From the IMG/VR virus record IMGVR_UViG_3300042397_001164: a DNA stretch of 64,000 nt. One strand, 5' to 3'. This stretch comes from an uncultured virus (IMG/VR IMGVR_UViG_3300042397_001164). Lineage: Duplodnaviria; Heunggongvirae; Uroviricota; Caudoviricetes; Crassvirales. The notes under the pieces are model-generated. The model was given only the letters and a program-made list of their open reading frames with translations. It was not told the origin of the DNA and did not search any database. The position numbers and the translations under genes were made by a program. This document shows, piece by piece, positions 16,022-46,886 of this stretch. Numbering within the stretch: the first letter of the stretch is position 1; the number at the start of each line of letters is the position of its first letter.

Positions 16022-16072
16022 CAAAGATATATTTATTTAATTAAATTAATTACTTTTGCTTAATTAAATTAA
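16022..16072. promoter_or_regulatory. Divergent promoter pair with two TTAATTAAATTAA boxes
   Basis: TATCTTTG (- strand, 16022-16029) and TACTTTTG (+ strand, 16051-16058); boxes at 16037-16049 and 16060-16072. Confidence 0.75.
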
Positions 16073-16076
16073 TTTT

Positions 16077-17417
16077 ATGCCAACTAGCTTTCAATTTTTC
16101 AAACAAGAAGTCAGGGATTACATTGTAGATAATGTAGACATAAACAAAAGAATATTAGATGTAGGGCCCGGCGTTGGAACGTACTCTGATTTACTTAAAA
16201 ACTATGGTTACTACATGGATTGCGTAGAGATATACGAACCCTATGTTGTTAATTATCAATTGGAAAAGAAGTATAACTATGTCTTTATGCAAAGTGTAGT
16301 TGGCTTTAATTTTGATTATTACGAGTTTATTATCATGGGTGATGTGCTGGAGCATTTGTCTGTGGAAGATGCCCAAAGCATAATCAAAAAGATAGTAACC
16401 AGTGGTAAGCAGTGCTTGGTGGCAGTTCCTTATCTTATGGAACAGGGGGAGCATGAAGGCAATGCCCATGAAACCCATTTGCAGCCTGATTTAACTCCGG
16501 AGGTTATGGAAACCAGATACCCAGAACTTCAATTACTTTATGCTAACCAGTACTATGGCTACTATGTAAACAAGAAACAAAAGCATAAGAAAGCTTATTT
16601 GTTATATGCAGATGAATCTTATGCCGACTTGGTTCAAGTATGCGTTGAATCAATCCGTAAGTTCAGTGAGATACCAATCCTAGTTTACATGCTTAACTCT
16701 GATAAAAAGATTAATGATACGGAAACAATAAGATGGGATTGTGATGTAAAGCACCTGAAACAAAGGTCCGACTACATTGATAGATCCAATAAAAGCATCT
16801 ACAAATTACTTATACAAAGACCTTTAATAACCAAACATGCACTTGAAAACTATGCTGAAACGATTGCGTATGTGGATTCTGACTCTGTGGCTAGTCCATT
16901 TGTTGACAACATCTTTACTTTCTATAATGAAGAATCTAGTCACCCCTATTTTACAGAAGGTATCTATGAATATCTTATGGTCAATGGTAGAGGCGGCGCT
17001 GAAAGTAGGGCGGATTTAAGCACTACATTAGAAGCACCAGCCTGTGAGCTATTTAACATAAACCAGTATGTCCGTAACAGATATAGGCAAACAGGATATT
17101 ATGTTGCAGGCCAAAATACTATTGAATTTTTAGATGAATGGTATTGGATGTGCAACCACCCTAAAGTATTAAAGAACCACAATTATTACGCACCCTTCCA
17201 TGAAGAAACCATACTTCAAGCCCTTCTATATAAGCGTATGACGTTTTCCGGATTACCATACTGCTACATCAATGGACTACATAAAGACCTAGAATTTACT
17301 GGTCGTGATAACTTAATAGGACCATGGATTAAAGTACCTTCACATAAAGAACATCTCCTGTTCTATCATGGAGAAAAGAACATTGAAAAGATTAAAGAAT
17401 TTATAGAAACACTATGA
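16077..17417 (+). CDS. Class I SAM methyltransferase fused to a GT-A glycosyltransferase
   Basis: ILDVGPGVG and GDVLEHL in the N-half; IAYVDSDS (DxD), EFLDEWY and HEETIL in the C-half. Confidence 0.75.
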   Translation: MPTSFQFFKQEVRDYIVDNVDINKRILDVGPGVGTYSDLLKNYGYYMDCVEIYEPYVVNYQLEKKYNYVFMQSVVGFNFDYYEFIIMGDVLEHLSVEDAQSIIKKIVTSGKQCLVAVPYLMEQGEHEGNAHETHLQPDLTPEVMETRYPELQLLYANQYYGYYVNKKQKHKKAYLLYADESYADLVQVCVESIRKFSEIPILVYMLNSDKKINDTETIRWDCDVKHLKQRSDYIDRSNKSIYKLLIQRPLITKHALENYAETIAYVDSDSVASPFVDNIFTFYNEESSHPYFTEGIYEYLMVNGRGGAESRADLSTTLEAPACELFNINQYVRNRYRQTGYYVAGQNTIEFLDEWYWMCNHPKVLKNHNYYAPFHEETILQALLYKRMTFSGLPYCYINGLHKDLEFTGRDNLIGPWIKVPSHKEHLLFYHGEKNIEKIKEFIETL

Positions 17418-19465
17418 GAATATTATTTTTAGCTCCGCATCTTAGCACAGGAGGTATGCCCCAGTTCCTATTGAAAAGACTTCAAGGACTGAGAAACCAT
17501 ACTAATAATGAATATTATGTGGTAGAGTATCAATGCCATAGCCTAGATTATGTGGTTCAACGTAATGCCATAAAGGATTTAGTTGGTAGTAATTTTACTA
17601 CCTTTTATGAGAATAAGATGGAGCTATTTGATGTAATAGAAAGTTTCCAACCTGATATAATCCATATAGATGAAATGTCTGAAAGATTAGATAGGGAGAT
17701 GGTAAAGAAGCTTTACAACCCAGATAGAAAGTATCGCATTGTAGAAACCTGCCATGACATTTCCTTTGATCCGAATAGCAAGTTATTCCACCCAGACCTA
17801 TATTCATTCTGTACTCCGTATCATGAAGAAACTTTTGCAGACTTGGAATCCAAGTATGTTACAATACTTTATCCAATAGAAGAAATGAATCTTACCAAGT
17901 TCAAGACTATCTGGCAAGATGAATTAGGCTTTGATAGAAACAAAAAGCATGTGTTGAATGTTGGCTTATGGACTCCGGGAAAAAATCAAGCTGAAGGAAT
18001 AGAAATAGCTCGTAAATATCCTGATATGATGTTTCACTTTGTTGGTAATCAAGCTGGGAACTTTAAGCACTATTGGGAACCATTGATGCAGAACTTACCG
18101 CCAAATGTAAAGGTATGGGGAGAACGAACAGATATTGATCACTTCATGATAGCATCAGATGTATTTATGTTTAATAGTACATGGGAATGTAACCCAATTG
18201 TACTTCGTGAAGCCATAGGTTATGGACTACCTATTGTTGCGCGAAATCTTCCGCAATATGCCGGAATGTATAATGATTATATTTACTCAATAGATACGAA
18301 CTTTGAATTAGCATCTAGCTATCCTTCTTTATACAAAATACCAACAGACAATACTACAGGTGATTTTGCAAGAGCGCATCAAGTAGCTTATGAAAAAATA
18401 TTAGAACTCCCAGCACAAGTACAAAAGGTCCGCATCTTACAAAACTTCATCAACCACCCTTACCTTGAAATAAAAGGAGAAAGTGATAGTGACTTTGATG
18501 TTAGATTATATGATGAGAATGATGTATGCCAATACCGAAATGTAATCAAAAGCAATAGCTGGGTAAGGCTCAATAGACAATACTATACCAAATGGAAAAC
18601 GTATGTATATCAAGATGGTGAGTTGATTTATGAAAACATATTAGACCTGCATGGTAAAAAAGTATTCATATCAATAGAAAGTAAAGCTTTGGGAGATACG
18701 ATTGCATGGGTTCCGTATGCTTTAGAGTTCCAAAAGGAGCATGGATGTAAAGTTGTATTGTCCACTTTTTATAATAAAATACTGGACTATCCTGAACTTG
18801 AATTATTAGAACCCGGCAGCTCTGTTAATTGTTATGCCATGTATAAGATTGGGTGGCACTATGATACCAGTAGAGAGCCAGAACTTCCAAACACAATACC
18901 ATTACAAAAGGCAGCGTCTAATATTTTGGGCTTAAAGTATACCGAAATTCGCCCCAAATTATTTACCAAGAGGAATTGCCCAGAGCATAATAAATACATC
19001 ACTATTGCCACTAATTCTACCACAGGATGTAAGTTTTGGATAAGGGATGAATGGCAGAAACTAATTAACTATTATACCGAACAAGGCTATAAGGTATACA
19101 ATGTTTCTAAAGAAATTAATCCATTTGACAATTGCCCACAGATACCAGATACATCAATGGAATCTACAATGGATTGGATATACCATAGCACTTTCTTTGT
19201 AGGGCTTAGTTCTGGACTTAGCTGGTTGGCATGGGCTTTAGGTAAGCAAGTTGTACTAATAAGCAACTTTACTGAATTTGACCATGAGTTCCTTACCAAC
19301 TGCATACGAATCACAAATGAAAAAGTATGTCATGGATGCTGGAACAAGCCAGAAATAAAATTTGATAAAGGCAATTGGAATTGGTGTCCTTACAATAAAA
19401 ACTTTGAGTGCCAGACTTCAATCACCGCAGAGATGGTAATCAATAGAATTAATCGTTATTTTTAA
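17414..19465 (+). CDS. GT4-like glycosyltransferase fused to an autotransporter heptosyltransferase (TibC/AAH, BAHT)-like domain
   Basis: N-half HLSTGG...NVG...KNQ...ECNPIVLREA (GT4); C-half ALGDTIAW, FVGLSSGLSWLAW, CHGCWN, WCP and FEC (BAHT signature with four Cys). Confidence 0.8.
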   Translation: MRILFLAPHLSTGGMPQFLLKRLQGLRNHTNNEYYVVEYQCHSLDYVVQRNAIKDLVGSNFTTFYENKMELFDVIESFQPDIIHIDEMSERLDREMVKKLYNPDRKYRIVETCHDISFDPNSKLFHPDLYSFCTPYHEETFADLESKYVTILYPIEEMNLTKFKTIWQDELGFDRNKKHVLNVGLWTPGKNQAEGIEIARKYPDMMFHFVGNQAGNFKHYWEPLMQNLPPNVKVWGERTDIDHFMIASDVFMFNSTWECNPIVLREAIGYGLPIVARNLPQYAGMYNDYIYSIDTNFELASSYPSLYKIPTDNTTGDFARAHQVAYEKILELPAQVQKVRILQNFINHPYLEIKGESDSDFDVRLYDENDVCQYRNVIKSNSWVRLNRQYYTKWKTYVYQDGELIYENILDLHGKKVFISIESKALGDTIAWVPYALEFQKEHGCKVVLSTFYNKILDYPELELLEPGSSVNCYAMYKIGWHYDTSREPELPNTIPLQKAASNILGLKYTEIRPKLFTKRNCPEHNKYITIATNSTTGCKFWIRDEWQKLINYYTEQGYKVYNVSKEINPFDNCPQIPDTSMESTMDWIYHSTFFVGLSSGLSWLAWALGKQVVLISNFTEFDHEFLTNCIRITNEKVCHGCWNKPEIKFDKGNWNWCPYNKNFECQTSITAEMVINRINRYF

Positions 19466-19661
19466 GTCCGTATTTAATCCACTTATACCATATACGCTCA
19501 TGGACGTAGTACTGAATTGGCTTATAAACCAGTTCAGCTACTCCAAAGGCTGCGCCTACTTTTACAGATCCGCTTATACCCCACATGATACCGAATCCAA
19601 TGGCAGTACTTAGTATTCTATAACTTATTGTTTTAGCTATGTGTCTTTTGGCTTGTACCAT
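19449..19661 (-). CDS. DUF2061 small membrane protein
   Basis: KTISYRILST and YYVHERIW. Confidence 0.8.
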   Translation of the reverse strand: MVQAKRHIAKTISYRILSTAIGFGIMWGISGSVKVGAAFGVAELVYKPIQYYVHERIWYKWIKYGLKNND

Positions 19662-20031
19662 ACATTTCTTCTCTTATCTTGGTTGCTGAAATTTGTGCTA
19701 CTTCTGGTGGTGGTATATGCTCTATGATGTCATAGCCAACTCCTCTACCAAAGTTGACTGAAGAAATATCAGGAACAATAATAACTTGAACATTTTCATT
19801 ATCCCAATATTCTTTTGATATGTTTTCAAACACCTCTTTTGTAGTAAATGGATTTTTTTCATTAACTTCACCATCTCTAACAGCAATACACACGCGCCCT
19901 CCCTCATCTAATATTTGCTTAAACATTTGCTTATGCGCCTCATGAAGCGGCTGCCAACGTCCTATAAACAATGACCATTGACTATCCTTTCGTTCCATTG
20001 AGCTTTTAACATGTACTTTTTTATCCCACAT
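19633..20031 (-). CDS. Cytidylyltransferase-like (HxGH-superfamily) nucleotidyltransferase
   Basis: GRWQPLHEAH, NPFT, ISATKIRE. Confidence 0.8.
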   Translation of the reverse strand: MWDKKVHVKSSMERKDSQWSLFIGRWQPLHEAHKQMFKQILDEGGRVCIAVRDGEVNEKNPFTTKEVFENISKEYWDNENVQVIIVPDISSVNFGRGVGYDIIEHIPPPEVAQISATKIREEMYGTSQKTHS

Positions 20032-20440
20032 ATTGAATTATTTTAGTTATTGTTTCTTTGATAGTTAAATTATCAGTATTGATTTGCATGAAATTTTCCA
20101 ATTCTGGTTCATCAAAATCAGTAACATGGAACTCTTCTCTGCCTCTTGGCTCTGTGTATGTAAGGTATATCCATTTGACATCCGACACTAAGCTATTCAA
20201 ATAATCTCTTGCTTCTTTGTATGGATAAACTAAAGACAATACCACATCATTACCATTGTAATGTAAGTATGTTGCAATGTCACTAGCTCTGTTAAGATTA
20301 TTGATTCTACCTTGTTTACTATAATCTTTATTCTTGAACATAGTTCTCAAATGATCGCCATCAATATAATAATCAGCAGTAATTGAATTTGCTAGTGTTG
20401 TCTTGCCAGAATGTGGCTGCCCAAATAATACTATAATCAT
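20021..20440 (-). CDS. cysC: Adenylyl-sulfate (APS) kinase
   Basis: P-loop GQPHSGKTT, IDGDHLR, DYSKQGRINN, FDEP. Confidence 0.8.
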   Translation of the reverse strand: MIIVLFGQPHSGKTTLANSITADYYIDGDHLRTMFKNKDYSKQGRINNLNRASDIATYLHYNGNDVVLSLVYPYKEARDYLNSLVSDVKWIYLTYTEPRGREEFHVTDFDEPELENFMQINTDNLTIKETITKIIQYVG

Positions 20441-21255
20441 TTTGAATATCTAAATTGTTGAAAGAACCATTGATAATTATCCCATATCCAACCTGTAACA
20501 TCTTTACCTAGCAATTGCTTTGCTCTTGATGGAACTGGCTCTAACTTTGTACGAATAGTGTGGTCACCGAAGCTACCATACACTTCATCATCTTCTTTTG
20601 TTATCTGTTGGATATTATCCCAGTCATGTTGGAAATACGGAATCTCTAGGTACTGATATATTCTTTGCATCTCTGTATCAGGGTAAAGACATAAATCTTC
20701 AAACTTTACAAATAATACATGCTTATCTATACCTAATCTAAATAGTTCTTGTAATCTTTCAATAGCCAATCCTACTGGTTGTGATTGCGCCCACATATCC
20801 ACACGCTTCGGGACTGTTGTTCCTTGCATTTGAGGCCAATTAAGAATAGGATTAGCTTTGTCTGGATTCTTCCTATAATTACTTTCCATTGATGCAAATA
20901 CATCTCTTAAATCCCTAACCATGCAAATAATCTTTGGATTAGGCTGGATGAAGTTTAAGAAGTCATAATGTATGCCCCAACCTCTACTCTTATCTACTAC
21001 ATACTTTTTATCTGTGATGGCATTGTAATAAGCGTCCATACCATTTTTACAAAAGGCTTGGAAGGCTGTTTTCATTACCTCTGGATCTTGTGCTTGGAAC
21101 TCAGGAGAGTCTGTGTAATTACCTCTTGCGGCAAATACTAGCTCCAACACCCCACTCGTTGGAGTGGCATATATATCTGTATTCTGTGCTAGTATGTTTT
21201 GTAAAAGAGTTGAACCGGAACGAGGTAAGGAGCTTTGATAAAATATCTTATCCAT
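20437..21255 (-). CDS. PAPS-dependent sulfotransferase
   Basis: 5'-PSB motif LPRSGSTLL, 3'-PB motif VRDLRDVFAS, KFEDL; start set at MDKIFY (21255). Confidence 0.85.
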   Translation of the reverse strand: MDKIFYQSSLPRSGSTLLQNILAQNTDIYATPTSGVLELVFAARGNYTDSPEFQAQDPEVMKTAFQAFCKNGMDAYYNAITDKKYVVDKSRGWGIHYDFLNFIQPNPKIICMVRDLRDVFASMESNYRKNPDKANPILNWPQMQGTTVPKRVDMWAQSQPVGLAIERLQELFRLGIDKHVLFVKFEDLCLYPDTEMQRIYQYLEIPYFQHDWDNIQQITKEDDEVYGSFGDHTIRTKLEPVPSRAKQLLGKDVTGWIWDNYQWFFQQFRYSK

Positions 21256-22138
21256 TCTGTTTTTTAATTGATTCAATAATAGTGTCAATATTAAAAATTT
21301 CCTCTTCGTTATTGTATGGGAACTCTAATAAATTACCGCTGATGTCATACTTCTGTAAATAAGAATTGCGTAATTCTGGTTTCTTGGTTTCTGGATTAGC
21401 CAAGATGTTATCATGCAAATCATGACCAAATACTACAGGAGTGTTAGCTACCCAGCAAACTGTACTTGGTTTACCCATAGCCGCTGCCGCATGATGCCCA
21501 AAACTATCCATGAACAATCTCTTGCTACTTAACTCAATTAATACTGCTAATGCTCTAAAATTATCTGTTACAGGGAATGTAAAGTCATAAGATGGCTGGT
21601 CCTCCCTTTTGATGTGAATGATATTGTATTCATCCTTGAACTCTTCAATAACCTTTGTTACAACACCTGCTGGAATATCTCTAGCCCAAGAATACTTTAA
21701 CTCTTGACCTTGAGCACCTCCGTTAGTCTGTAATAAAAATATAGGTCTATCTGAAACAAACTTCTTACCAAAGAATGTTTTCTCTCTATCTGTTAAAAAT
21801 AATTCTGGAGTGGTAGATTCTGGAACATCAAAGCCAAACATCTTGCACCATGTATGTGTCAAATGTTCTGTTTGCATTAAGTGACCTGCTTCTAAATATG
21901 GATCATGTCCAAGAAACTTGAAGTCTTTATTTTCAATATAATCTTGATAGAAATAACTGGTTTGACCAAAGCCAAAGGCTCTGTCAACATAAGGATTATC
22001 CAAAAAAACTTCAGGATAACCGCTTACAACTACCAACTGGCAGTCAGGATTTTGTTTCTTGATTTGACGGCAAACAGTAGTTGCCATAACGCATTTGCCT
22101 ATGCCACCATTAATGGATAGAATTAAATTTTGCTTCAT
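21248..22138 (-). CDS. GT-B glycosyltransferase, GT9-like
   Basis: GGIGKCVMAT, EVFLDNPYVD, DSFGHHAAAAMGKPSTVCW. Confidence 0.7.
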   Translation of the reverse strand: MKQNLILSINGGIGKCVMATTVCRQIKKQNPDCQLVVVSGYPEVFLDNPYVDRAFGFGQTSYFYQDYIENKDFKFLGHDPYLEAGHLMQTEHLTHTWCKMFGFDVPESTTPELFLTDREKTFFGKKFVSDRPIFLLQTNGGAQGQELKYSWARDIPAGVVTKVIEEFKDEYNIIHIKREDQPSYDFTFPVTDNFRALAVLIELSSKRLFMDSFGHHAAAAMGKPSTVCWVANTPVVFGHDLHDNILANPETKKPELRNSYLQKYDISGNLLEFPYNNEEEIFNIDTIIESIKKQNG

Positions 22139-22163
22139 ACTTTTAGATAGTTTTTATACCACC

Positions 22164-22209
22164 CAAAAGTATGAAGTATTTATTAAATTAAAAAAATTAA
22201 TTTAATAAA
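22164..22209 (-). promoter_or_regulatory. -7 promoter element with an inverted pair of box-like sites
   Basis: TACTTTTG on - strand (22164-22171); perfect 13-bp inverted repeat TTTATTAAATTAA (22179-22191) / TTAATTTAATAAA (22197-22209). Confidence 0.65.
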
Positions 22210-22213
22210 ATTA

Positions 22214-22567
22214 TTATAGAGGAGCTACAGTAGTAGTTGTAGTAGTCGTAGTGGTTGTTGAAGCAGCCAAAACAGCAGCAGCAAGATCTAAAAACGCTGT
22301 AGTATCTAAGTCTGCATACTGCACTCTGAAACTTTGCACTCCTTGTTGGCTTGGTAACCAATCAGAGAAAAGGTCATAGAATGTGTTAATTGCATGGTAC
22401 TCTTTAGGGCCAGTATAACCTTCTGGTTTGTTTGCCCATACATCATCTACACAAGCATCTACTAGAGCTTGGAAGTCAGAAACATTTGCCTGTACGTTTT
22501 GGGTATCAGTGATTACTTGTACTGTACCAAAACCGAAAATGTGAAGTGTGTTAAATGGATTTGCCAT
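22214..22567 (-). CDS. Probable virion or fibre-associated protein with poly-Thr C-terminus
   Basis: 117 aa ending in S + poly-T + VAPL; downstream of the tail fibre gene. Confidence 0.7.
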   Translation of the reverse strand: MANPFNTLHIFGFGTVQVITDTQNVQANVSDFQALVDACVDDVWANKPEGYTGPKEYHAINTFYDLFSDWLPSQQGVQSFRVQYADLDTTAFLDLAAAVLAASTTTTTTTTTTVAPL

Positions 22568-22614
22568 TGTTTTTATTTTTTATATTTTGTAAATTTAGTA
22601 TTTTTTATTGAAAT

Positions 22615-23096
<482 letters not shown>

Positions 23097-23100
<4 letters not shown>

Positions 23101-26100
23101 GATTCATATTTTTTAAGTTTCTCCTCTAATTTGGCAAGTCTTTCTTCCATCTTCATCATTTTGTATATGTGAACTTGATGATAGTCTACGTTGTAATAAC
23201 CCTTCTCATCTGTTCTGATTGTATCTGGAAGAATTTCTTTAACATTCTGAGCAGAATATCCTATGTTAATAACACTTGCATCTCCTTCTTTCCAATTGAA
23301 ATAGATAGGGTTGATGTTATCAAAAGAACCCACTCTACAATGAATATCCTTAAGTCTTTCATCAGAAGATTCAAAATATGCTTGTGCCCACATACAAGAT
23401 ATAGCACAGAAGTTATTCCAATAGAATGTGCTTGAACAACCTCCTGTAAAACAAACACCACCACCACCTGAATATGCACCTGATACTGTAACATTTTTAC
23501 CACCTAAAATTGCAGAGTAGATTCCTGATACTGTATTGTTATTACCTCCTGCTACTGAAGAAAAACATCCTGAAGCTGTATTTGTATTTCCTCCACTAAC
23601 TGCACTTCTTGGTGCTGATGCTGTATTACTTGAACCACTTCCAACGAAACTCCAACTACCTGAAGCTATATTATTAGCTCCACCTCCTATTGCAGAACAA
23701 GCTCCTGAAGCAGCATTTAAAACACCACTTCCAACAAAAGAAAGTGTTGCACTTGCAGTGTTACTACTACCTGCTACTATTGTTGCATAGTAATTACCTG
23801 ATGCAGTATTTGCTTCTCCACCACCTACAAATCCAAAAGATGCACCACAAGCCTTATTATTAACACCACCTCCAACAAAACCTGCCGCTGCTGTTGCTCT
23901 ATTACACCAACCACCTACAATAGCAGAATGTGCTCCTGATGCAACGTTACCACACGCACCAATTGCTCCACCACCTCCAATGAACGAACAGTTCCCTGAC
24001 GCACAGTTGCAATATCCCCCTGCTATAGCTGCATAACAACCCATAGCTTTATTGCCATCTCCACCACCTACAAAACCTACAAACCCTGTACAGTTATAAT
24101 ATCCTCCACTAATTGCTCCATAACTTGAGCAAGTTGTGTTTCCAATACCTCCTGCTACTGTACTATAATTACAATTTGCTCCATTTGCTAAACCACCTCC
24201 CACAGTAGTCCATGGACCACCTGCATTATTACCTGCACCACCACCAACAGTAGTCCATTGATTTGTAGCTGTATTTACGCACCCTCCACCAACTGTAGAG
24301 AAAATTCCTGATGCTGTGTTAGCATATCCTCCACCTACAATAGAAGTACAACCACTTGCAATGTTAGCCCTACCACCGCTCACAGTTGAACAAGCCCCAA
24401 CCACAGTGTTATTTCTACCACCACCAATAGTAGCAACATAGCCACTTGCTGTGTTTTGATAACCACCACTAACAGTTGTATAAGCGTTTGTTATTGCACA
24501 GTTTTGTGCTCCTCCTGCTACTACAGAAGCTGTAAAATTCGCTGTATTAGCAGTACCTCCACTAACTACTGAATATGCCCCTGAAGCACTGTTACCACTA
24601 CCACCTGATACTGTTGCTCTATTGTTTGTAGCAGAGTTGTTATTACCTCCTCCAATAGCAGAGAGTAATGCTGAAGCCACGTTACTTATACCACCACCAA
24701 CTCTTGAAGCACAGCCTGAAGCAGTATTACTTAATCCACCACCTACAGAAGTATGTCTGAAGGTAGCAGTGTTCCCACTACCACCACTTACAGTGCTATG
24801 ATAAGCACTTGCTGTATTTCCTGCTCCTCCACCTACAGTGGAAGCATCTCCTGATGATACGTTACCCAATCCACCTGCAACTGTAGCCCAAAAGAAACAA
24901 GCTGTATTACCATTACCACCACCAACAGTTGTATTGTTACATGAAGCTACATTATTACAACCACCTCCAACTGTTGAACATGAGCCTGAAGCTGTATTGC
25001 CAAGACCACCTCCAATTGCAGAAAATCCTCCTGAAGAAGTATTTGATTGACCACCTCCTACGGTTGCTCTATCAATTGAAGCAGTGTTTAAATATCCTCC
25101 TGCTATTGTTGCTAATTTTCCGCTTACATTATTTTGAAGTCCTCCACCCAAGAATCCATATTGATTACTTACTGTGTTACATAGACCACCCACCAAAGTA
25201 GCTCCATATTGACTTACTTGGTTTGATTGTCCACCACCCAAAAATGCTATAGTTCCATTTGGATTTATAATATTACTATTACCACCTAACAAAATTGAAA
25301 AGTATCCACAGTTGATATTATTATAACCACTAAATGTTCCTGAAAATGCACAAATTGTTCTGTTTAGCTGACCACCGCCCACTACAGAACAAGCTCCTGA
25401 TGCTGTATTAGCTTCACCTCCTGCCACAGTAGAAATTTGACCTGATGCCACATTACCACTGCCACCACCTGCTGTAGCCCATGCTCCTGATGCACCATTT
25501 GATTGACCGCCCAAAGTTGCAGCACGACATCCTGTTGCACTGCTTCCATAACCACCTGCCACTACTGATATTTGACCACTTGCAAGGTTGCCATATCCAC
25601 CTGAAATTGTAGACCAAGGTGCACAAGCTGTATGTGTTCTACCACCACCTATAAAAGCATAATTTGCTGAAGCAGTACTACAATTACCGCCAACAACAAC
25701 AGAAAATCCTCCTGATGCTATGTTATTAATTCCACCTACTGCAACTGCAAATCCATTACTTACTGTGTTTGCTTGACCTCCACCAAGAAATGAACAAGCT
25801 CCTGAATTAGTGTTTTGAAAACCTCCTGTTACAACAGAACGATATGCTGATGCAGTGTTACTATCTCCACCTCCTATAAAAGACCTTGGTCCTGAAGCAG
25901 TGTTAAAATATCCACCTGAAACAGTTGAAAAGTATGCTCCTGATGCAGTGTTACACTTACCACCTCCTACAGTATTAACTCCTGAACCTGTTGCTCTGTT
26001 ACATATACCACCCGACACTATTGAAAATCCTGTTGTTGCACAGTTTGTTTGACCTCCTCCCACAAATGAACAACCACCTGAAGCTGTATTAGTTGAACCA

Positions 26101-29100
26101 CCAACAACAGCTGATTGCTGTCCTGATGCTGTGTTTGCATATCCTGCTCCGACAAATGTATCGTCTGCACAAGTGGCATTATATCTACCACTAAATGTAC
26201 CACTAGCATATCCTATTGCTCTGTTATTTTGTCCACCACCAATAGCACTTCTATTTCCTGAAGCAGTATTATTAATACCACCTCCAACAAATGCAACATA
26301 AGCAGACGCTGTGTTTATCCAACCACCAACTACTGATGAAGCACATCCTGAAGCTGTTTGACTATACCCTGCTCCTATAAAAGAAATGTTTCCTGAACCT
26401 GTATGATTAACACCACCTGTTATTGTTGCATAAGGAGCAGATGCGGTACTATTTTTACCACCTCCCACAAATGACCAACTTCCTGTAGCTCTATTCTGAA
26501 ATCCTCCTCCTATAAAAGAAAGACATCCTACATTTACTTTAGTAGGAGCTACTGTCCATCCATTTGAACCATTCCAAGTTCCACCACAAGTGTTATTTCC
26601 AAGACCTCCTGCTATAACAGAATACCCTGCACAGTTTTGTGCTGTTGAATGACAAATACTATTGCAATAACCACCTGATATTGTAGAATACCAAGAAGAA
26701 GCTGAATTAACAGCACCACCACCAACTGTAGAAGATGCTTGTGAAGATGTGTTATATACACCACCTCCTATAGTTGATTGTACACCTGAAGCTGTGTTAT
26801 TACTGCCACCCACCACAGTTGAACAATTAGCTGAAGCTGTGTTAGATACACCACCTCCTACAAAAGAACGACCACCTGATGCTATATTACTTTGTCCACC
26901 TGCTACTGTAGAATTAGTAGCACTTGAAACGTTATATGAACCGCTTACTGTTGAAGCACCACCTGACGCTGTATTATTTCTACCACCGCCAACAAAGTTG
27001 AAATTGCTTGTACTTAAATTAGCATAACCACCTGTTATATTAGCATAATATCCATTACTTATTGTGTTGCTTTGACCACCACCAATAGTGCTTATAAGAC
27101 CATTTGAGCAAATTAAGTTTCCTGAACCACCTGCTATTGTATTAAATATTGCTAAAGCTCTATTGTTTTCACCACCTCCCACTGTAGAACAAGCTCCTGA
27201 TGCTGTATTAGTTAAGCCACCACTTACAGTTGCTCTTGCTCCTGAAGCAGTGTTTTGTTGACCACCACCTACCGTAGACATATAGCCACTAGCTGTATGT
27301 AAATAACCACCACTTACTGTAGAGCAGTTACCTGATGCTGTATTGCACCTACCTCCACCTACTGTTGAGGAATATCCTGAAGCTGTGTTTATATTACCAC
27401 CTGATGCGGTTGCAAAAGGTTTAGATGCTGCATTAGAACCACCACCACCTATAAAAGTATAACATCCTGAAGCATTATTTCCACCACCACCACCTACAAT
27501 TGCACCTTCTCCTGTAGCTCTACTATTATTACCGCCTAATACACTTGCATAGATAACTGTAGCACAGTTAAGTCTACCTCCTGCCACTGTTGAGTTTTGT
27601 GCGGTAGCACAGTTTAGATACCCTCCACTTACTGTACTTGTTATACCTGTTGCCCTATTGCTTACACCTCCTCCAATAGAAGAATAAGTGCTACTTGAAG
27701 TATTACCTTGACCACCAGCTATTACAGAAGCATACCCTGACGCTGTATTTGTTCTACCGCCTCCTATTGTACTCCACAATCCTGATGATGTATTTAATTG
27801 ACCTCCTCCAACAAATGAACAATTGCCTTGTGCAGTATTTGACAATCCACCACCTATTGCTGAATGAGCTCCTGATGCTGCGTTTCCACAACCAACACCA
27901 CCTCCTCCTCCAATAAATGAACAGTTCCCTGTTGCTAAATTGACATAACCACCTGCTATAGCTGCATAGCTACCCATAGCCTTATTACCATCACCTCCAC
28001 CAACAAAACTTACAAAGCAAGTGCAGTTGTAATAACCTCCACCTATAGAACCATAAGAAGCCAAAGCACAGTTTCCAATACCTCCACCTACTGTTGCATA
28101 ATAATTACCACTTGCTGAATTAGAAAGACCTCCACCTACTGTATTATACAAACCTAATGCAGTGTTAGTTTGACCACCACCTACAAAAGAACAAGCTCCT
28201 GAAGCTGTATTTGAGCATCCTCCACCAACAAAAGAACGAGCACCTGAAGCAGTATTACCTGCACCATTACCTACAAAAGAATAATCTCCTGAAGCAACAT
28301 TATTTACACCTGTTCCTATAAAAGATACGTTACCATTTGCTGTATTTGCACCACCATTACCTATGAAAGCATAATATGTTCCACTTGCTGTGTTATTATT
28401 ACCTCCAACAACTATATTATAAGCAGTTCCACCAATTGTATTGCTTAAACCTGCAAGATTACCCGTATATGTTCCTGTTGCACTATTACTTACACCACAA
28501 CGAACAGAAGAACAACCCCCTGCTCCTAAAACGACTACAGCACTAGACCCAACATTTATACCACTTGAACCACTAGAACCTGATGTTCCTGAAGTTCCAG
28601 AAGTACCGCTTGTTCCTGAAGTAGCCGAAGTTCCAGAAGTACCAGACGTTCCCCCTGTACCATTTGTTGCTGATGTACCTGATGTACCCGAAGATCCACT
28701 TGTACCTGAAATTCCACTTGAACCTGACGTACCTCCCGTACCATTTGTACCACTAGTACCAGACGTTGCTGATGTACCAGAACTTCCAGACGTACCTGTT
28801 GTTCCGCTAGTACCGCTTGTAGCAGATGTACCACTTGAACCACTTGTTCCTGTTGTACCACTAGTACCAGATGTACCAGAAACTCCACTTGAACCAGATG
28901 TGCCATTAGTTCCATTTACACCACTTGTACCAGAAGTTCCGCTAGTTGCAGAAGTTCCAGATGTCCCACTAGAACCTGAAGTTCCAGCAGTTCCGCTACT
29001 ACCACTTACACCACTAGTTCCAGAACTCCCTGAAGAACCACTAGAACCAGAAGATCCACTAGTTGCAGATGTACCACTTGTTCCAGAAGTACCACTTGGT

Positions 29101-30647
29101 GGATTGAATGTTGTTTGAGCGTATGAGTAGTTACTCGTACCCTCTGTATAAAAAGTTATATCATGATTAGCACCACCGCCACTAAATTCAGCATAAATTT
29201 GACAATAAAGCCTATCTGTTGCGTTTAATGCGGTTTGACCTAAAAACAAATCTGTAAAAAACTCTCTGATAACATTTGTTGACATAGACTCGGTATCTAG
29301 GTTTGTAGTACCTAGAAGTGTTGAAACACCACCCGTTGTGTATTTATAAAGCTCTACATCTACTGCTACGTTTCTATTTGTATTAATAGAAAAGTGCGTT
29401 ACCCAAGCCCAGTTGCCAGCAGGTATGCTTGTTAGATTAGGCACACCTGAATCAGTTGCAAAAGTTGCAATTAATGTTCTTGTGTTTGGCGCTACATTTG
29501 TAACTACAGTTTGCTCTGCTCCTACTACTGCTGTAGGTGACCATTGCTTATATGTCGGAGTACCAAAAGCAGTATTTGTATTTAAAGATTGATTTAGATA
29601 GTATACAAGACCACCTGCAACACCATTAATACCATTTATACCTGAAGTACCTGCCGTTCCGCTAGTACCAGAAGTTCCTGTTGTTCCAGAAGTACCTGTT
29701 GTACCGCTTGAACCAGAAGTGCCTGATGTACCTGTTGTCCCACTTGTACCACTTGAACCAGACGTTCCTGAAGTTCCAGACGTACCCGAAGTACCACCAG
29801 TTCCATCTGTGCCACTAGTTCCACTAGAGCCAGAAGTACCCGAAGTACCTGACGTACCGGTTGTTCCAGAAGTGCCAGAACTTCCGCTAGTTCCACTACT
29901 TCCACTTGTTCCAGTTGTACCAGAAGAACCAGAAGAACCAGTGGTTCCTGAAGTTCCGCTTGTACCACCTGTGCCATCTGTACCAGAACTACCACTAGTC
30001 GCAGAAGTGCCTGAAGTACCTGACGTACCGCTTGTACCTCCTGTACCATCTGTTCCTGATGTACCACTTGTGCCTGATGTGCCACTCGTAGCGCTTGAAC
30101 CAGAAGTACCTGATGTTCCAGATGTGCCTGATGTACCATCTGTACCTGACGTACCTGATGTACCTGTAGTGCCTGAAGTTCCATTTGTACCTGAAGTACC
30201 TGATGTAGCCGAAGTACCGGAGGTTCCAGAAGTACCTGTCGTACCTGAAGTTCCAGTTGTTCCTGATGTACCCGAAGTACCAGAGGTAGACGAGCTACCC
30301 GAAGATCCACTTGTTCCAGCTGTTGCTGAAGTTCCACTAGTGCCAGAAGTACCGCCAGAACCATCGGTTCCCGAAGTACCAGATGTACCAGTAGTTCCTG
30401 AAGTACCAGTTGTACCACTTGTTCCGGCAGTGGCTGAAGTTCCGGATGTACCAGAAGTTCCAGTTGTACCCGAAGTACCACTACTACCAGCAGTACCTGA
30501 TGTACCACTAGTGCCACTTGTTCCACTGCTTCCAGATGTACCTATAGTTCCTGAAGTATCGGCAAATACAATACCATCTACTGCAACTAATATACCATTT
30601 TCATCTCTAAGCTTTAAGTCACCGCTGATTAAATTCTGTATTGCCAC
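23097..30647 (-). CDS. Giant tail fibre/spike: Gly-Thr-Ser repeats, Cys-rich beta-helix repeats, C-terminal intramolecular chaperone (peptidase S74-like)
   Basis: Two (GTS)n blocks; many NTASGxxSxVGGG repeats; C-terminal SSDERLKDI...GYSAQNV...VDY and coiled coil; GTG start. Confidence 0.85.
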
Positions 30648-34700: not shown

Positions 34701-35076
34701 CAGCAGCTTGTTGCTTAATTTCAGCATCAGTAATAACCTTACCTTCTACTACCGGTAATCCATTTTCTAATCTTCTTTGCTCAATTTCTGCTTTGGTAAT
34801 ACCTCTTATGGCTTCTTCATTGCTTTGAGCTTCTTCGGTAGCTTCAGCCCTTTGCTGGCTTGATCGTATTCCTTCACTACTTTCGGTGATATTTTTCCTT
34901 GCTCCAGTAGGACGTGAAACTTTTTCCTCTGCGCTTCGCTCTTGTATGGCATCTTGGATAGGTTTTAAGTTAGATAAATCTTGGTTTAAAAGATAGTCTT
35001 TAAGCTCCGGTTCGGTCATTTCTTTGAACTCGCCGGGCTTAACTTCAATAATATATTTACAAGGGTTTTTTGCCAT
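31762..35076 (-). CDS. Large internal virion/ejection-type protein
   Basis: 1104 aa, alpha-helical and coiled-coil; DPESVTFGQIK and ANPLVGIAADIATGKGFSG segments typical of podovirus ejection proteins. Confidence 0.65.
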   Translation of the reverse strand: MAKNPCKYIIEVKPGEFKEMTEPELKDYLLNQDLSNLKPIQDAIQERSAEEKVSRPTGARKNITESSEGIRSSQQRAEATEEAQSNEEAIRGITKAEIEQRRLENGLPVVEGKVITDAEIKQQAAEQIENGYDFDALIQRMEQGQGTSAVESEILKIYAATLDNALVKDPFNKKIQRDLARFTEAKLISAATMGRDFRALQGTAYAPLEQLQTLSDYVTVVREANGVDELTDNQMKKVIEDYEKIQKEVEKLKKEKQELEELNAKMLAEQEMAKINTEVKKEKKEKAPKRDYKKEREDIFKSIKEKWNRASKGSEGLTAVPLPFSAQLYAISPDVAKLVKIYAEDGVSKLDDVVNNIYDLLKDGIEGITKKDIVDIIAGKYKEKEKKALNEAKANLANINKEAKLASAIYDLKYGPKQELTEKKQIEKNAEISAKEKELRELRKESGYYDESKLKSLIARNEAKANEIKRKIENKEFEPTPRPESFIENPELKKKYPYSYNKYLDGLNKIDEMKHQFLMAAEKDKLEKEGKLGKAKQLGKEFLNTIMALKSGIDNSVVFVQNSSVMLDPESWGIKIRKQKGRSALNPFAYKINITKEKPALQALKFQKMAFASEAALRRRLLEIYDNKPLWNMIEKSGLDILDPKGFKTKLKEESFGKRNLLERVGADKYITAPFERLFSGFSNEIRLSLFIQGSQELMDQGKTIENSLKDYQDLASKVNNLTGRGETMFKSSKSIQSAVLWSPKLLASTLNKLGLSDLISNKLWGKKDSKGRPMGYYSAMNKEGREKAVQATVRSLSTVFLIMAAASLQDDVEVDADPESVTFGQIKNTKTGWSINLLGPYGSVVKQLVMLGSSIASTLSGGALGPAKKIGADGEPKKVDVVRESYKFIRGKANPLVGIAADIATGKGFSGKPYDIKKELTSDLFEPLFLQDFRKSYQASGAEAILYAIPTFYGLKVQNEKTFDERDLKSLLDNNVSSSSMDRNSIFNYKDKINKGRRITKSEFDEFVKERDAFLKGLIEEIHKNGFSVPNEKGKLIEKIVEGEGPNVATKQELADELSRLQKYATSVKKIEKFGQKQAQDPDVQYDLRQDRARRGIGKDDDE

Positions 35077-35573
35077 TATAAGTCAGATATATGTTCGTCA
35101 AATTCAAGGATTTCTTTAGTTTGCTCTGCTATTTTATATTTAGCAAGTAAATCACCATAATGGCCTACCGCTTTTCTTTGAATTTCAATGAATTGTAAAA
35201 TGTACTGAGCTACAGAAACATCTTCATCTGCCGCCTTCTCATAAAAATCTTTATATTGATTATATACGTCCAATTCAGTATTGTAGCCAATCTCTAACGC
35301 ATCACCAATATCCGTTACTTTATCAGTAACTGCATCAATTTTTGGAAGGTCAGCGCAGTCACCCATATCATTCATGAACTCAACGTGCATTTGATAATGG
35401 GTTAATTCCTCAGCACTTTCTGCTAAGAAGTATTTTTGGCTACCAAATAGACCTAACCTCTGTAATTGATTAGCTAGGCTTTTCCATAGGTTAGATTGAT
35501 ACAGTTCTATATATACCGCATCTTGCATGCCCTTTTTCATTGCCGGGCTTAATAATGATTTTAGGTTGGACAT
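35076..35573 (-). CDS. Ferritin-like protein (FtnA type)
   Basis: IELYQSNL, SAEELTH, YNTELDV and FIEIQ align with the FtnA ferroxidase helices. Confidence 0.8.
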   Translation of the reverse strand: MSNLKSLLSPAMKKGMQDAVYIELYQSNLWKSLANQLQRLGLFGSQKYFLAESAEELTHYQMHVEFMNDMGDCADLPKIDAVTDKVTDIGDALEIGYNTELDVYNQYKDFYEKAADEDVSVAQYILQFIEIQRKAVGHYGDLLAKYKIAEQTKEILEFDEHISDL

Positions 35574-46613: not shown

Positions 46614-46886
46614 TTAATTATTTGAAAAATAAGCTAATATATCGTTATGACGAATCAAAAAATGCAATTCATTATCTACAATAACAGGTTCCCCTGCACC
46701 TTTGATATGAAAAATGCAATCATCTTTTTTTGCTTCCATTTTTACTTTAGCAGTTCCGCGACCAACAGAAATTACTTTAGCCTTACTACTTCTTTCCCTA
46801 AATCCTTCAGGGATAAATAATCCTCCTTCTGTAATTTCATCAGCCATAAATGGTTTTACTAAAACAAAATCTCTAATTGGTTTCAT
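46614..46886 (-). CDS. groES: Co-chaperonin GroES-like protein
   Basis: MKPIRDFVLVKP, TEGGLFIP mobile loop, KVISVGRG, IRHNDILA. Confidence 0.85.
   Translation of the reverse strand: MKPIRDFVLVKPFMADEITEGGLFIPEGFRERSSKAKVISVGRGTAKVKMEAKKDDCIFHIKGAGEPVIVDNELHFLIRHNDILAYFSNN

Follow-up and report, generated by a model that had tools for sequence, protein, structure and literature searches.

A five-gene operon of a crAss-like freshwater phage as a likely self-contained sulfation module with a candidate minimal ATP sulfurylase

How does a phage that carries an adenosine 5'-phosphosulfate (APS) kinase obtain APS, and what is done with the product? This question is raised by a five-gene operon at positions 19449-22138 (minus strand) of the IMG/VR virus record IMGVR_UViG_3300042397_001164, which was analyzed as one stretch of 64,000 nucleotides (the window) and is a phage genome with large terminase, portal and primase/helicase genes. 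In the direction of transcription, the operon encodes a GT9-like putative glycosyltransferase of 296 aa (gene 1; 21248-22138), a predicted sulfotransferase of 283 aa with a TTG start (20437-21288) that depends on 3'-phosphoadenosine 5'-phosphosulfate (PAPS), a trimmed CysC-like APS kinase of 139 aa (20021-20440), an HxxH nucleotidyltransferase of 132 aa (19633-20031; called NT below) that is the candidate minimal ATP sulfurylase, and a DUF2061 membrane protein of 70 aa as the last gene (19449-19661). The original prediction of five overlapping co-directional genes was borne out: all five are open reading frames (ORFs) of the minus strand, four have Pfam matches above the curated cut-offs, and successive genes overlap by 41, 4, 11 and 29 nt. 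The arrangement is not due to chance, because the same gene order recurs in dozens of viral contigs.

We consider it likely that this operon equips a crAss-like freshwater phage with a self-contained sulfation module, in which NT is a minimal ATP sulfurylase and cysC feeds sulfation. In the proposed pathway, NT would convert ATP and sulfate to APS and pyrophosphate (PPi), as a minimal ATP sulfurylase from the NMNAT-like branch of the HxGH nucleotidyltransferases. The trimmed kinase, encoded immediately upstream, would convert APS to PAPS, as its conserved residues suggest, and pull the unfavourable first reaction forward. The DUF2061 protein may work with this pair at the membrane, as its genomic context indicates, and the sulfotransferase would spend PAPS on a presumed acceptor, either a glycan that the GT9-like enzyme builds or a residue within the beta-roll tail fibre nearby. 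The operon probably makes its own PAPS and sulfates a target beside the tail fibre. Since the kinase product, PAPS, would be used by the sulfotransferase of the same operon, the phage cysC would feed sulfation and not host cysteine synthesis; neither cysH nor sulfite reductase was found in the window.

The kinase matched APS_kinase (PF01583) with 39.4 bits against a cut-off of 21.1 (E 7.8e-10) and the PDB entry 2yvu with 5.7e-8. In an alignment of 33 sequences, among them two canonical CysC proteins (L094 and L095), the P-loop residues G7, G12 and K13, the D27-G28-D29-x-x-R32 stretch, R45, N48, P73 and R78 are invariant. As the 139-aa protein keeps every CysC-invariant residue of this alignment, we infer that it has APS-to-PAPS activity. 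The sulfotransferase matched Sulfotransfer_3 with 71.8 bits against 27 (1.2e-19), Sulfotransfer_1 with 55.4 bits (7.7e-15) and phrog_27463 with 5.7e-42. Its best curated match is the Nod-factor fucose sulfotransferase NoeE (2.9e-9, far under the cut-off), and its closest PDB entry is the protein-tyrosine sulfotransferase TPST1 (6.6e-5), with which the PRSGST and VRDLRD...S (VRDxRD) stretches are aligned. We take these stretches to be the 5'-phosphosulfate and 3'-phosphate binding motifs. Family and motifs identify the predicted 283-aa protein as a PAPS-dependent sulfotransferase. cysC had been proposed to serve glycan sulfation; the sulfation part of this proposal is upheld by the operonic sulfotransferase and the lack of cysH, and the glycan acceptor is not, the closest solved relative being a protein-tyrosine sulfotransferase.

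The case for NT as the source of APS begins with its partner. DNA around relatives of NT was collected, giving 84 loci (80 viral, the best 80 of 277, and 4 cellular), and these were searched by tblastn with the window proteins. An APS kinase homologue was found in 81 of the 84, and in the other three NT lies at the contig edge (contig positions 1, 2 and 20). The kinase is upstream on the same strand in 79 loci and no more than 30 nt from NT in 71, with a median distance of -3 nt. DUF2061 is present in 76 of these loci, the window-type sulfotransferase in 64, a GT9-like homologue in 57 and a GT1-TibC homologue in 15, so the core of the cassette consists of kinase, NT and DUF2061, and the other genes vary as cargo. 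Loci that lack the window-type sulfotransferase can carry another family (Sulfotransfer_5 in L003, Sulfotransfer_2 in L049); sulfotransferases of three Pfam families accompany the kinase-NT pair. The Pfam scans covered seven loci, with L021 and L022 not among them. In the cellular loci L002 and L003, the pair lies inside polysaccharide-synthesis clusters. A 117-aa HAD-like (Hydrolase_3) ORF was seen between the APS kinase and NT in the viral locus L049 (5655-6008).

The two enzymes are also joined in single proteins. A phmmer search with NT against 1.84 billion representatives yielded 1,035 relatives, and the 150 best were examined; 62 of the 64 homologues of at least 188 aa among them (188-432 aa; all except P0234 and P0269) were scanned with Pfam. 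Fusions of NT to an APS kinase (PF01583) made up 46 of the 62, many of them full-length and with E values down to 1e-69. NT is the N-terminal domain in 17 of these fusions and the C-terminal domain, after the kinase, in 29. Among the other 16, 12 had PF01467 only or nothing, and four combined NT with DUF2061, DHHA1, a methyltransferase or DUF6717. The fused NT domains (n=50) retain the signature of the window protein (H30 and H33 in 50/50, R52 in 48/50, R96 in 48/50 and R120 in 49/50). The same kinase and NT fusion is represented by phrog_10255. One cluster of fused proteins includes members from cultured Halalkalicoccus, one of 286 aa, which are annotated as adenylyl-sulfate kinase only. Fusion in both orders to an APS-consuming enzyme is a classic signature of an APS-making enzyme and supports NT as the sulfurylase. 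The DHHA1 fusion is P0223 (432 aa). DHH/DHHA1 phosphoesterases include pAp phosphatases, and this fusion would couple sulfate activation with clearing of the sulfotransferase by-product.

Cellular genomes that carry NT offer a further line of evidence. Six such genomes were found, and five of them (G002, G003, G004, G168 and G200, of which G004 is a 969-kb chromosome record) are without Sat and CysD: no PF01747 Sat and no CysD were detected in these five, and in four of them PF01507 gave weak matches only, with E values of 8e-5 to 6.5e-4 in open frames of 440-514 aa. Each of the five has exactly one APS kinase, which adjoins NT. In a sample of 151 genomes from one phylum, APS kinase was present in 98, Sat in 48, CysD in 52 and NT in 3. 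Sat and CysD were both missing from 11 of the 98 kinase-positive genomes; all three NT genomes were among these 11, and NT was found in 0 of the 87 others (Fisher p = 0.0011). The view of NT as a minimal non-canonical ATP sulfurylase, put forward in the original prediction, is thus supported on comparative grounds, by kinase adjacency, fusions and five genomes without Sat or CysD.

The protein itself was examined for features that bear on its chemistry. NT matched CTP_transf_like (PF01467) with 27.3 bits against a cut-off of 21 (E 4.7e-6). A structure predicted from the single sequence by AlphaFold2 was poor (predicted local distance difference test, pLDDT, 55) and was replaced by an alignment-based model with a pLDDT of 90. 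Foldseek found no PDB match to this model at E <= 0.001, and VIA-align was used instead. The highest scores were obtained with PPAT (Z 9.8) and NMNAT (Z 9.5), both over ~110 residues, and with NadM (Z 8.8); the ATP sulfurylase of T. thermophilus (1v47) gave a Z of 7.6 with 22% identity over 113 residues. With a Pfam match above the cut-off and a modelled Rossmann-like fold that carries HxxH, NT is placed in the HxGH (HIGH) nucleotidyltransferase superfamily; its substrate is not told by the fold alone. The family has the signature GR[WYF]QPxHxGH, [AG][VI]RD, NP, PD, GRxVG[YW] and IS[AG]TxIR, in which H30 and H33 never vary and S115, T117 and R120 vary rarely or not at all. The HxxH and ISxTxxR motifs are those of alpha-phosphate nucleotidyl transfer, and canonical Sat is of the same fold class. 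NT has 7,743 homologous database clusters of similar length, whose public automatic names are often NMNAT, and also PPAT, FAD synthase or 'adenylylsulfate kinase'.

The HxxH and C-terminal ISxT-type motifs of NT correspond to those of a real Sat (L085), and two fused NT homologues have sub-threshold PF01747 matches at the C-terminal motif (1.6e-4 and 1.8e-4); the window NT has no Pfam match to PF01747. GRWQP of NT stands at the place of QTRNP in Sat, and GRGVGY at the place of GRDHAG, with the G-R pair alone common to both. The QxRN and GRDHAG motifs of Sat are presumably its sulfate/phosphosulfate-binding motifs. Because they are not matched, NT, if it binds sulfate, must do so otherwise than Sat, and candidates for sulfate-binding residues are R52, which follows strand 2, and R96 of the GRxVGY loop. 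By its profile and these motifs, NT is placed outside the Sat family. NT of this family has 105-132 aa and differs from Sat also in being without the PUA-like N-terminal domain; it differs from CysD/CysN in not being a GTPase-coupled enzyme.

Several observations weigh against NT being a sulfurylase and against the operon being a complete sulfation module. The original prediction had pointed to the superfamily that NT shares with Sat, which is true but generic: both in sequence and in fold, NT stands closest to NMNAT and PPAT rather than to Sat, and it does not have the QxRN and GRDHAG motifs that can be read in the L085 Sat. No ATP sulfurylase was among the best 60 of 70 PDB matches to the NT profile, and an hhalign comparison of NT with the L085 Sat covered the ISxT helix only (19 columns, E 0.098). 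The phage kinase is short of ~14 residues of the lid region compared with the CysC proteins of L094 and L095, and its best NCBIfam equivalog score is 43.8 bits against a cut-off of 127. Among the cellular genomes, the sixth one with NT (G005) has a Sat-APS kinase fusion as well, and the three NT genomes of the 151-genome sample, all of ~1 Mb, may come from one lineage. In the same sample, eight further kinase-positive genomes are without Sat, CysD and NT, which means that incomplete assemblies can mimic the 'orphan kinase' pattern. Among the 61 loci whose flanks reach 3 kb or more on both sides, 10 lack the window-type sulfotransferase, and no Pfam sulfotransferase family was found in L015, L023, L052 and L084, which have glycan genes or nothing recognisable. 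The assignment of NT as a candidate sulfurylase draws on its context.

The close relation of NT to NMNAT raises the possibility that NT is an adenylyltransferase for nicotinamide mononucleotide or nicotinic acid mononucleotide (NMN/NaMN) in NAD salvage and that the kinase is of the ribosylnicotinamide type, the two forming a split NadR-like pair. The best NCBIfam match of NT is indeed NF002243 (9.8e-10), archaeal NMNAT 1f9a is its best match in the PDB with the single sequence (2.4e-4), an archaeal NMNAT is matched with 2e-12 by the profile, the public automatic names are frequently NMNAT, and NT has in common with archaeal/NadM NMNATs (NF002243, TIGR01527; 1f9a, 1ej2, 2qjt) the GRxQPxHxxH motif together with ~75 residues at the start of the Rossmann-like core. 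However, the scores are far under the curated cut-offs (38.3 bits against 127 for NF002243 and 29.2 against 181.2 for TIGR01527), and the profile match covers positions 5-79 of 121 only. As the NMNAT alignments end there, the part of NT beyond position 79, with GRxVGY, is not NMNAT-like. NT has 125-132 aa against 168-181 aa in solved NMNATs; its C-terminal third is a short segment with the invariant GRxVG[YW] and ends just after ISxTxxR. The partner kinase is an APS kinase by Pfam, unambiguously so in the fusions, and keeps the CysC-invariant residues. In the scanned loci, the context of NT is almost always an APS kinase and never NAD genes (neither the window nor these loci gave a NadV, Nudix or NadE), and sulfotransferases recur beside it. 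By cut-off, C-terminal region and genomic context, NT is outside the NMNAT family, and we give an NAD-salvage role very little chance. A role in sugar activation, for example as an HldC-like heptose-1-phosphate adenylyltransferase supplying the GT9-like and TibC-like enzymes, appears only slightly less improbable. A TibC/Aah-type O-heptosyltransferase domain is encoded convergently at a distance of 0 nt, gene 1 of the operon is GT9-like, and HldC has the same fold as NT (5x9q, Z 6.3). This fold score is nevertheless below those of NMNAT, PPAT and Sat, and across the 84 loci NT follows the APS kinase rather than TibC or the GT9-like gene. Its fusions are to APS kinase and never to a heptose kinase (62 proteins scanned), and no GmhA, GmhB or HldE-like gene is present in the window. 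Neither the window nor the seven scanned loci yielded genes of NAD salvage or of the heptose pathway.

A different departure from sulfate activation would be that NT and the kinase produce a 3'-phosphonucleotide that resembles PAPS but donates another group, or that NT catalyses another APS reaction such as phosphorolysis. The model here is the Campylobacter Cj1416/Cj1415 route to 3'-phospho-cytidine diphosphoramidate; in the O-methyl phosphoramidate (MeOPN) pathway, APS-kinase homologues act on non-sulfate nucleotides. The divergence of the phage kinase with its shortened lid and the loci without a recognisable sulfotransferase would fit such a donor. On the other hand, the partner transferase has the PAPS-binding stretches of sulfotransferases, many of the fused kinases are canonical full-length APS kinases, the operon has no glutamine-kinase or amidohydrolase-like gene, and the missing-sulfurylase pattern of the five cellular genomes is explained by sulfate activation only; we regard this reading as improbable, to about the same degree as the sugar-activating one. 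NT could also be an inactive or regulatory scaffold for the APS kinase, with APS supplied by the CysDN or Sat of the host. Some canonical ATP sulfurylase-like domains are regulators, and the likely Bacteroidota hosts often have CysDN (e.g., the L095 operon). Against this stand the near-invariance of HxxH, ISxTxxR and several further residues across the NT family and the presence of NT in the five genomes that have no known APS source, and such a scaffold seems highly improbable.

The proposed sulfate activation by NT and the kinase has close parallels in known systems. In bifunctional PAPS synthases and in Sat-CysC and CysN-CysC pairs (human PAPSS1 1x6v, Aquifex 2gks), a nucleotidyltransferase is coupled to an APS kinase by fusion or operon, as here, and both enzymes of PAPS synthases are of the same fold classes as those of the phage. 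The domain order of PAPSS is kinase then transferase, which is also the order in the phage operon and in the 29 kinase-first fusions. The phage system differs from PAPS synthases in the shorter lid of its kinase and in the DUF2061 membrane protein as an added conserved partner. Functionally, the phage operon is a candidate for a split PAPS synthase with a sulfotransferase.

The DUF2061 protein had been suggested to be a sulfate-related accessory, and several of its contexts outside the phage cassette agree with this. The 70-aa protein matched DUF2061 (PF09834) with 58.4 bits against 23.1 (9.7e-16, 51/52 profile positions), a two-helix membrane protein. The family was found in 6 of 121 Bacteroidota genomes; one of these is the phage-like cassette itself and five are chromosomal. 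One chromosomal locus has the order CysQ-like / DUF2061 (tandem) / CysC, and another is a full sulfate-assimilation operon with DUF2061 directly before CysC-CysD-CysN-CysQ. These two CysC-adjoining loci are L094 and L095, L095 being the operon with CysDN; the remaining three of the five copies have unrelated contexts. A metagenome scan with the fused protein P0155, in which residues 113-284 were matched, recovered ordinary APS kinases only (80 loci, NT in 0/80), and DUF2061 lies immediately downstream of ordinary CysC in two of them (L127 and L147). Among 89 longer DUF2061 homologues, two (P0385 and P0386) also contain an APS kinase, and in P0182 DUF2061 is joined to NT. CysC adjacency and fusions tie DUF2061 to APS kinase and to the formation of PAPS, whether or not NT is present; it may act in membrane tethering, in regulation or in something transport-related. 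DUF2061 ORFs of ~144-154 aa were observed in L053, L055, L058-L060, L064, L073-L075, L078, L083 and L084, with an N-terminal extension of ~80 residues that belongs to no known family and begins right after NT.

What, then, would be sulfated? A tail fibre of 2516 aa (23097-30647, minus strand) is encoded 1 kb from the operon. It consists of two collagen-like G-x-y tracts (Collagen, 2.4e-47), ~1,600 residues of UspA1/YadA-head-like repeats (beta-roll; UspA1 head 3pr7, 6.3e-17 over residues 1006-1250) and a C-terminal S74 intramolecular chaperone (Peptidase_S74). The architecture of a bacterial trimeric-autotransporter head is present here within a phage fibre. A beta-roll fibre was found within 6 kb in 33 of the 84 NT loci, all 33 of which have the sulfotransferase and the GT9-like gene, and it was absent from 20/20 loci without the sulfotransferase and 27/27 loci without the GT9-like gene. 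Because the contigs are related and the flanks short, this link is an association only.

Next to the operon and convergent with it lies a two-gene operon on the plus strand. Its first gene encodes a protein of 446 aa whose N-terminal domain resembles a methyltransferase, with a score under the Pfam cut-off (16077-17417). In the 683-aa protein of the second gene, a GT1/GT4 glycosyltransferase is fused to a TibC/Aah-type domain for protein O-heptosyltransfer (17414-19465; TIGR04414, 1.3e-67, 228 bits against 200; Glycos_transf_1, 5.5e-12; Glyco_transf_9, 2.7e-7); the stop of this gene overlaps the end of the DUF2061 gene by 17 nt. A beta-roll fibre accompanies the GT1-TibC gene in 13 of its 15 occurrences. 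In the TibC-TibA and Aah-AIDA-I systems, beta-helical adhesins undergo protein O-heptosylation. Here, a TibC/Aah-family domain stands beside a huge repeat-rich beta-roll fibre, and by this analogy the domain suggests enzymatic decoration of a repetitive beta-solenoid surface protein. In contrast to these systems, the presumed target is a trimeric YadA/UspA1-head-like phage fibre and not an autotransporter, and the enzyme is fused to GT1 with a likely sulfation module alongside.

The name GT9-like for gene 1 of the sulfation operon, given by the original prediction, is weakly supported. The 296-aa protein had no Pfam match even at E 10 and no PDB match with the single sequence or a profile. The profile of its family aligned weakly in hhalign (E 0.006, probability 5.9%) with the TibC-like domain next door, over the C-terminal half of that domain, and a DSxxxHxAAAxGxP stretch is visible in the alignment, and PF01075 is present on 15% of the members of its ESM-Atlas neighbour cluster. 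An apparent fusion of the GT9-like protein and the sulfotransferase in L010 was rejected as an artefact, since it contains an internal stop. Two poly-Thr ORFs on the minus strand, of 117 aa (22214-22567) and 161 aa (22615-23100), lie between the fibre gene and the operon; they have runs of 11-12 threonines and no Pfam family. A homologue of the 117-aa ORF is upstream of the cassette in 11 of 84 loci (E<=1e-4) and, at E<=1e-6, was found in nine loci, all with a beta-roll fibre; these ORFs are possibly mucin-like O-glycosylation linkers or fibre accessories. Since the fibre co-occurs with the sulfotransferase, GT9-like and GT1-TibC genes, decoration of the phage's own fibre is the most attractive reading; a host envelope glycan is a possible target as well.

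The expression of the operon was considered from its upstream region. A candidate Bacteroidota-type -7 box, TACTTTTG, is located at 22164-22171 (minus strand), 25 nt before the first ATG of the operon, in a 75-nt AT-rich gap. We take TAnnTTTG to be the consensus of the Bacteroidota -7 box. The same octamer is found at 16051-16058 (plus strand), ahead of the convergent operon. Across the window the motif is no more frequent than chance would predict (100 occurrences against 99), a sigma-70 promoter scan gave nothing at 22164-22171, and sigma-70 promoter and terminator scans of the region were at chance level, so the operon promoter is deduced from position only. A promoter at 22164, as originally predicted, is plausible: a box of the TAnnTTTG type is there, and support from motif enrichment or a sigma-70 match is absent. 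In the freshwater metatranscriptome run X22, short contigs with 41-266 nt aligned to the region, mostly at 90-95% similarity, lie over portions of the genes for the sulfotransferase, the GT9-like protein and NT (window 19000-23200). They were not counted as expression, because they come from relatives and may be DNA carry-over.

The window further encodes crAss-type muzzle and ring proteins, an SU10-type adaptor and lysis genes; as a whole it has a GC content of ~35% and gave no tRNA in a scan. A ferritin/rubrerythrin-like gene (35076-35573) and a Cpn10 (GroES) gene (46614-46886), both on the minus strand, lie inside its structural module. The stretch recurs in lake and freshwater metagenomes from many studies. 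The operon region had no blastn match among GenBank phages, and the nearest record, G001 (a 37.5-kb fragment), had no PF01747 or PF01467 match and is uninformative. A 132-kb contig of a Sediminibacterium metagenome-assembled genome (L001) carries the whole cassette and a beta-roll fibre and may be a prophage or a mis-binned phage contig. Taken with the crAss-like genes and with the TAnnTTTG boxes, this contig is a hint that the host belongs to the Bacteroidota.

Phage cysC genes have been reported before. The COBRA study (PMC10914622) describes 62 cysC genes of freshwater phages with transcripts in lake metatranscriptomes and interprets them as genes of assimilatory sulfate reduction; its main text uses neither the word sulfotransferase nor the word sulfurylase. 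In contrast to the cysC genes as treated in that text, cysC here shares its operon with a sulfotransferase and a candidate sulfurylase and comes without cysH, which points to sulfation. PMC11980604 has no occurrence of PAPS, sulfurylase or adenylyl, and no description of the NT family or of phage PAPS synthesis was found in the open-access full-text literature.

To our knowledge, ATP sulfurylase has two known forms only, Sat and CysDN. It is possible, though we hold this wider proposal only tentatively and think it rather doubtful, that the NT family (105-132 aa) with the trimmed kinase and DUF2061 constitutes a third, minimal class of ATP sulfurylase or compact PAPS synthase in many phages, some bacteria and haloarchaea, which here sulfates the phage's own YadA-like beta-roll fibre directly or via a GT9-built glycan. 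If true, a third ATP sulfurylase form of 105-132 residues would alter the annotation of sulfate activation and would account for several bacteria with small genomes that have an APS kinase but no ATP sulfurylase. The proposal is readily testable, as NT is a very small protein that is simple to express, and cultured Halalkalicoccus species offer a fused orthologue. Viral cysC genes, hitherto taken as assimilatory, look here like parts of a sulfation pathway. The link to the fibre suggests that phages may sulfate their own adhesins, with a bearing on host recognition; if true, sulfation of the fibre would make it the first sulfated component of a phage virion.

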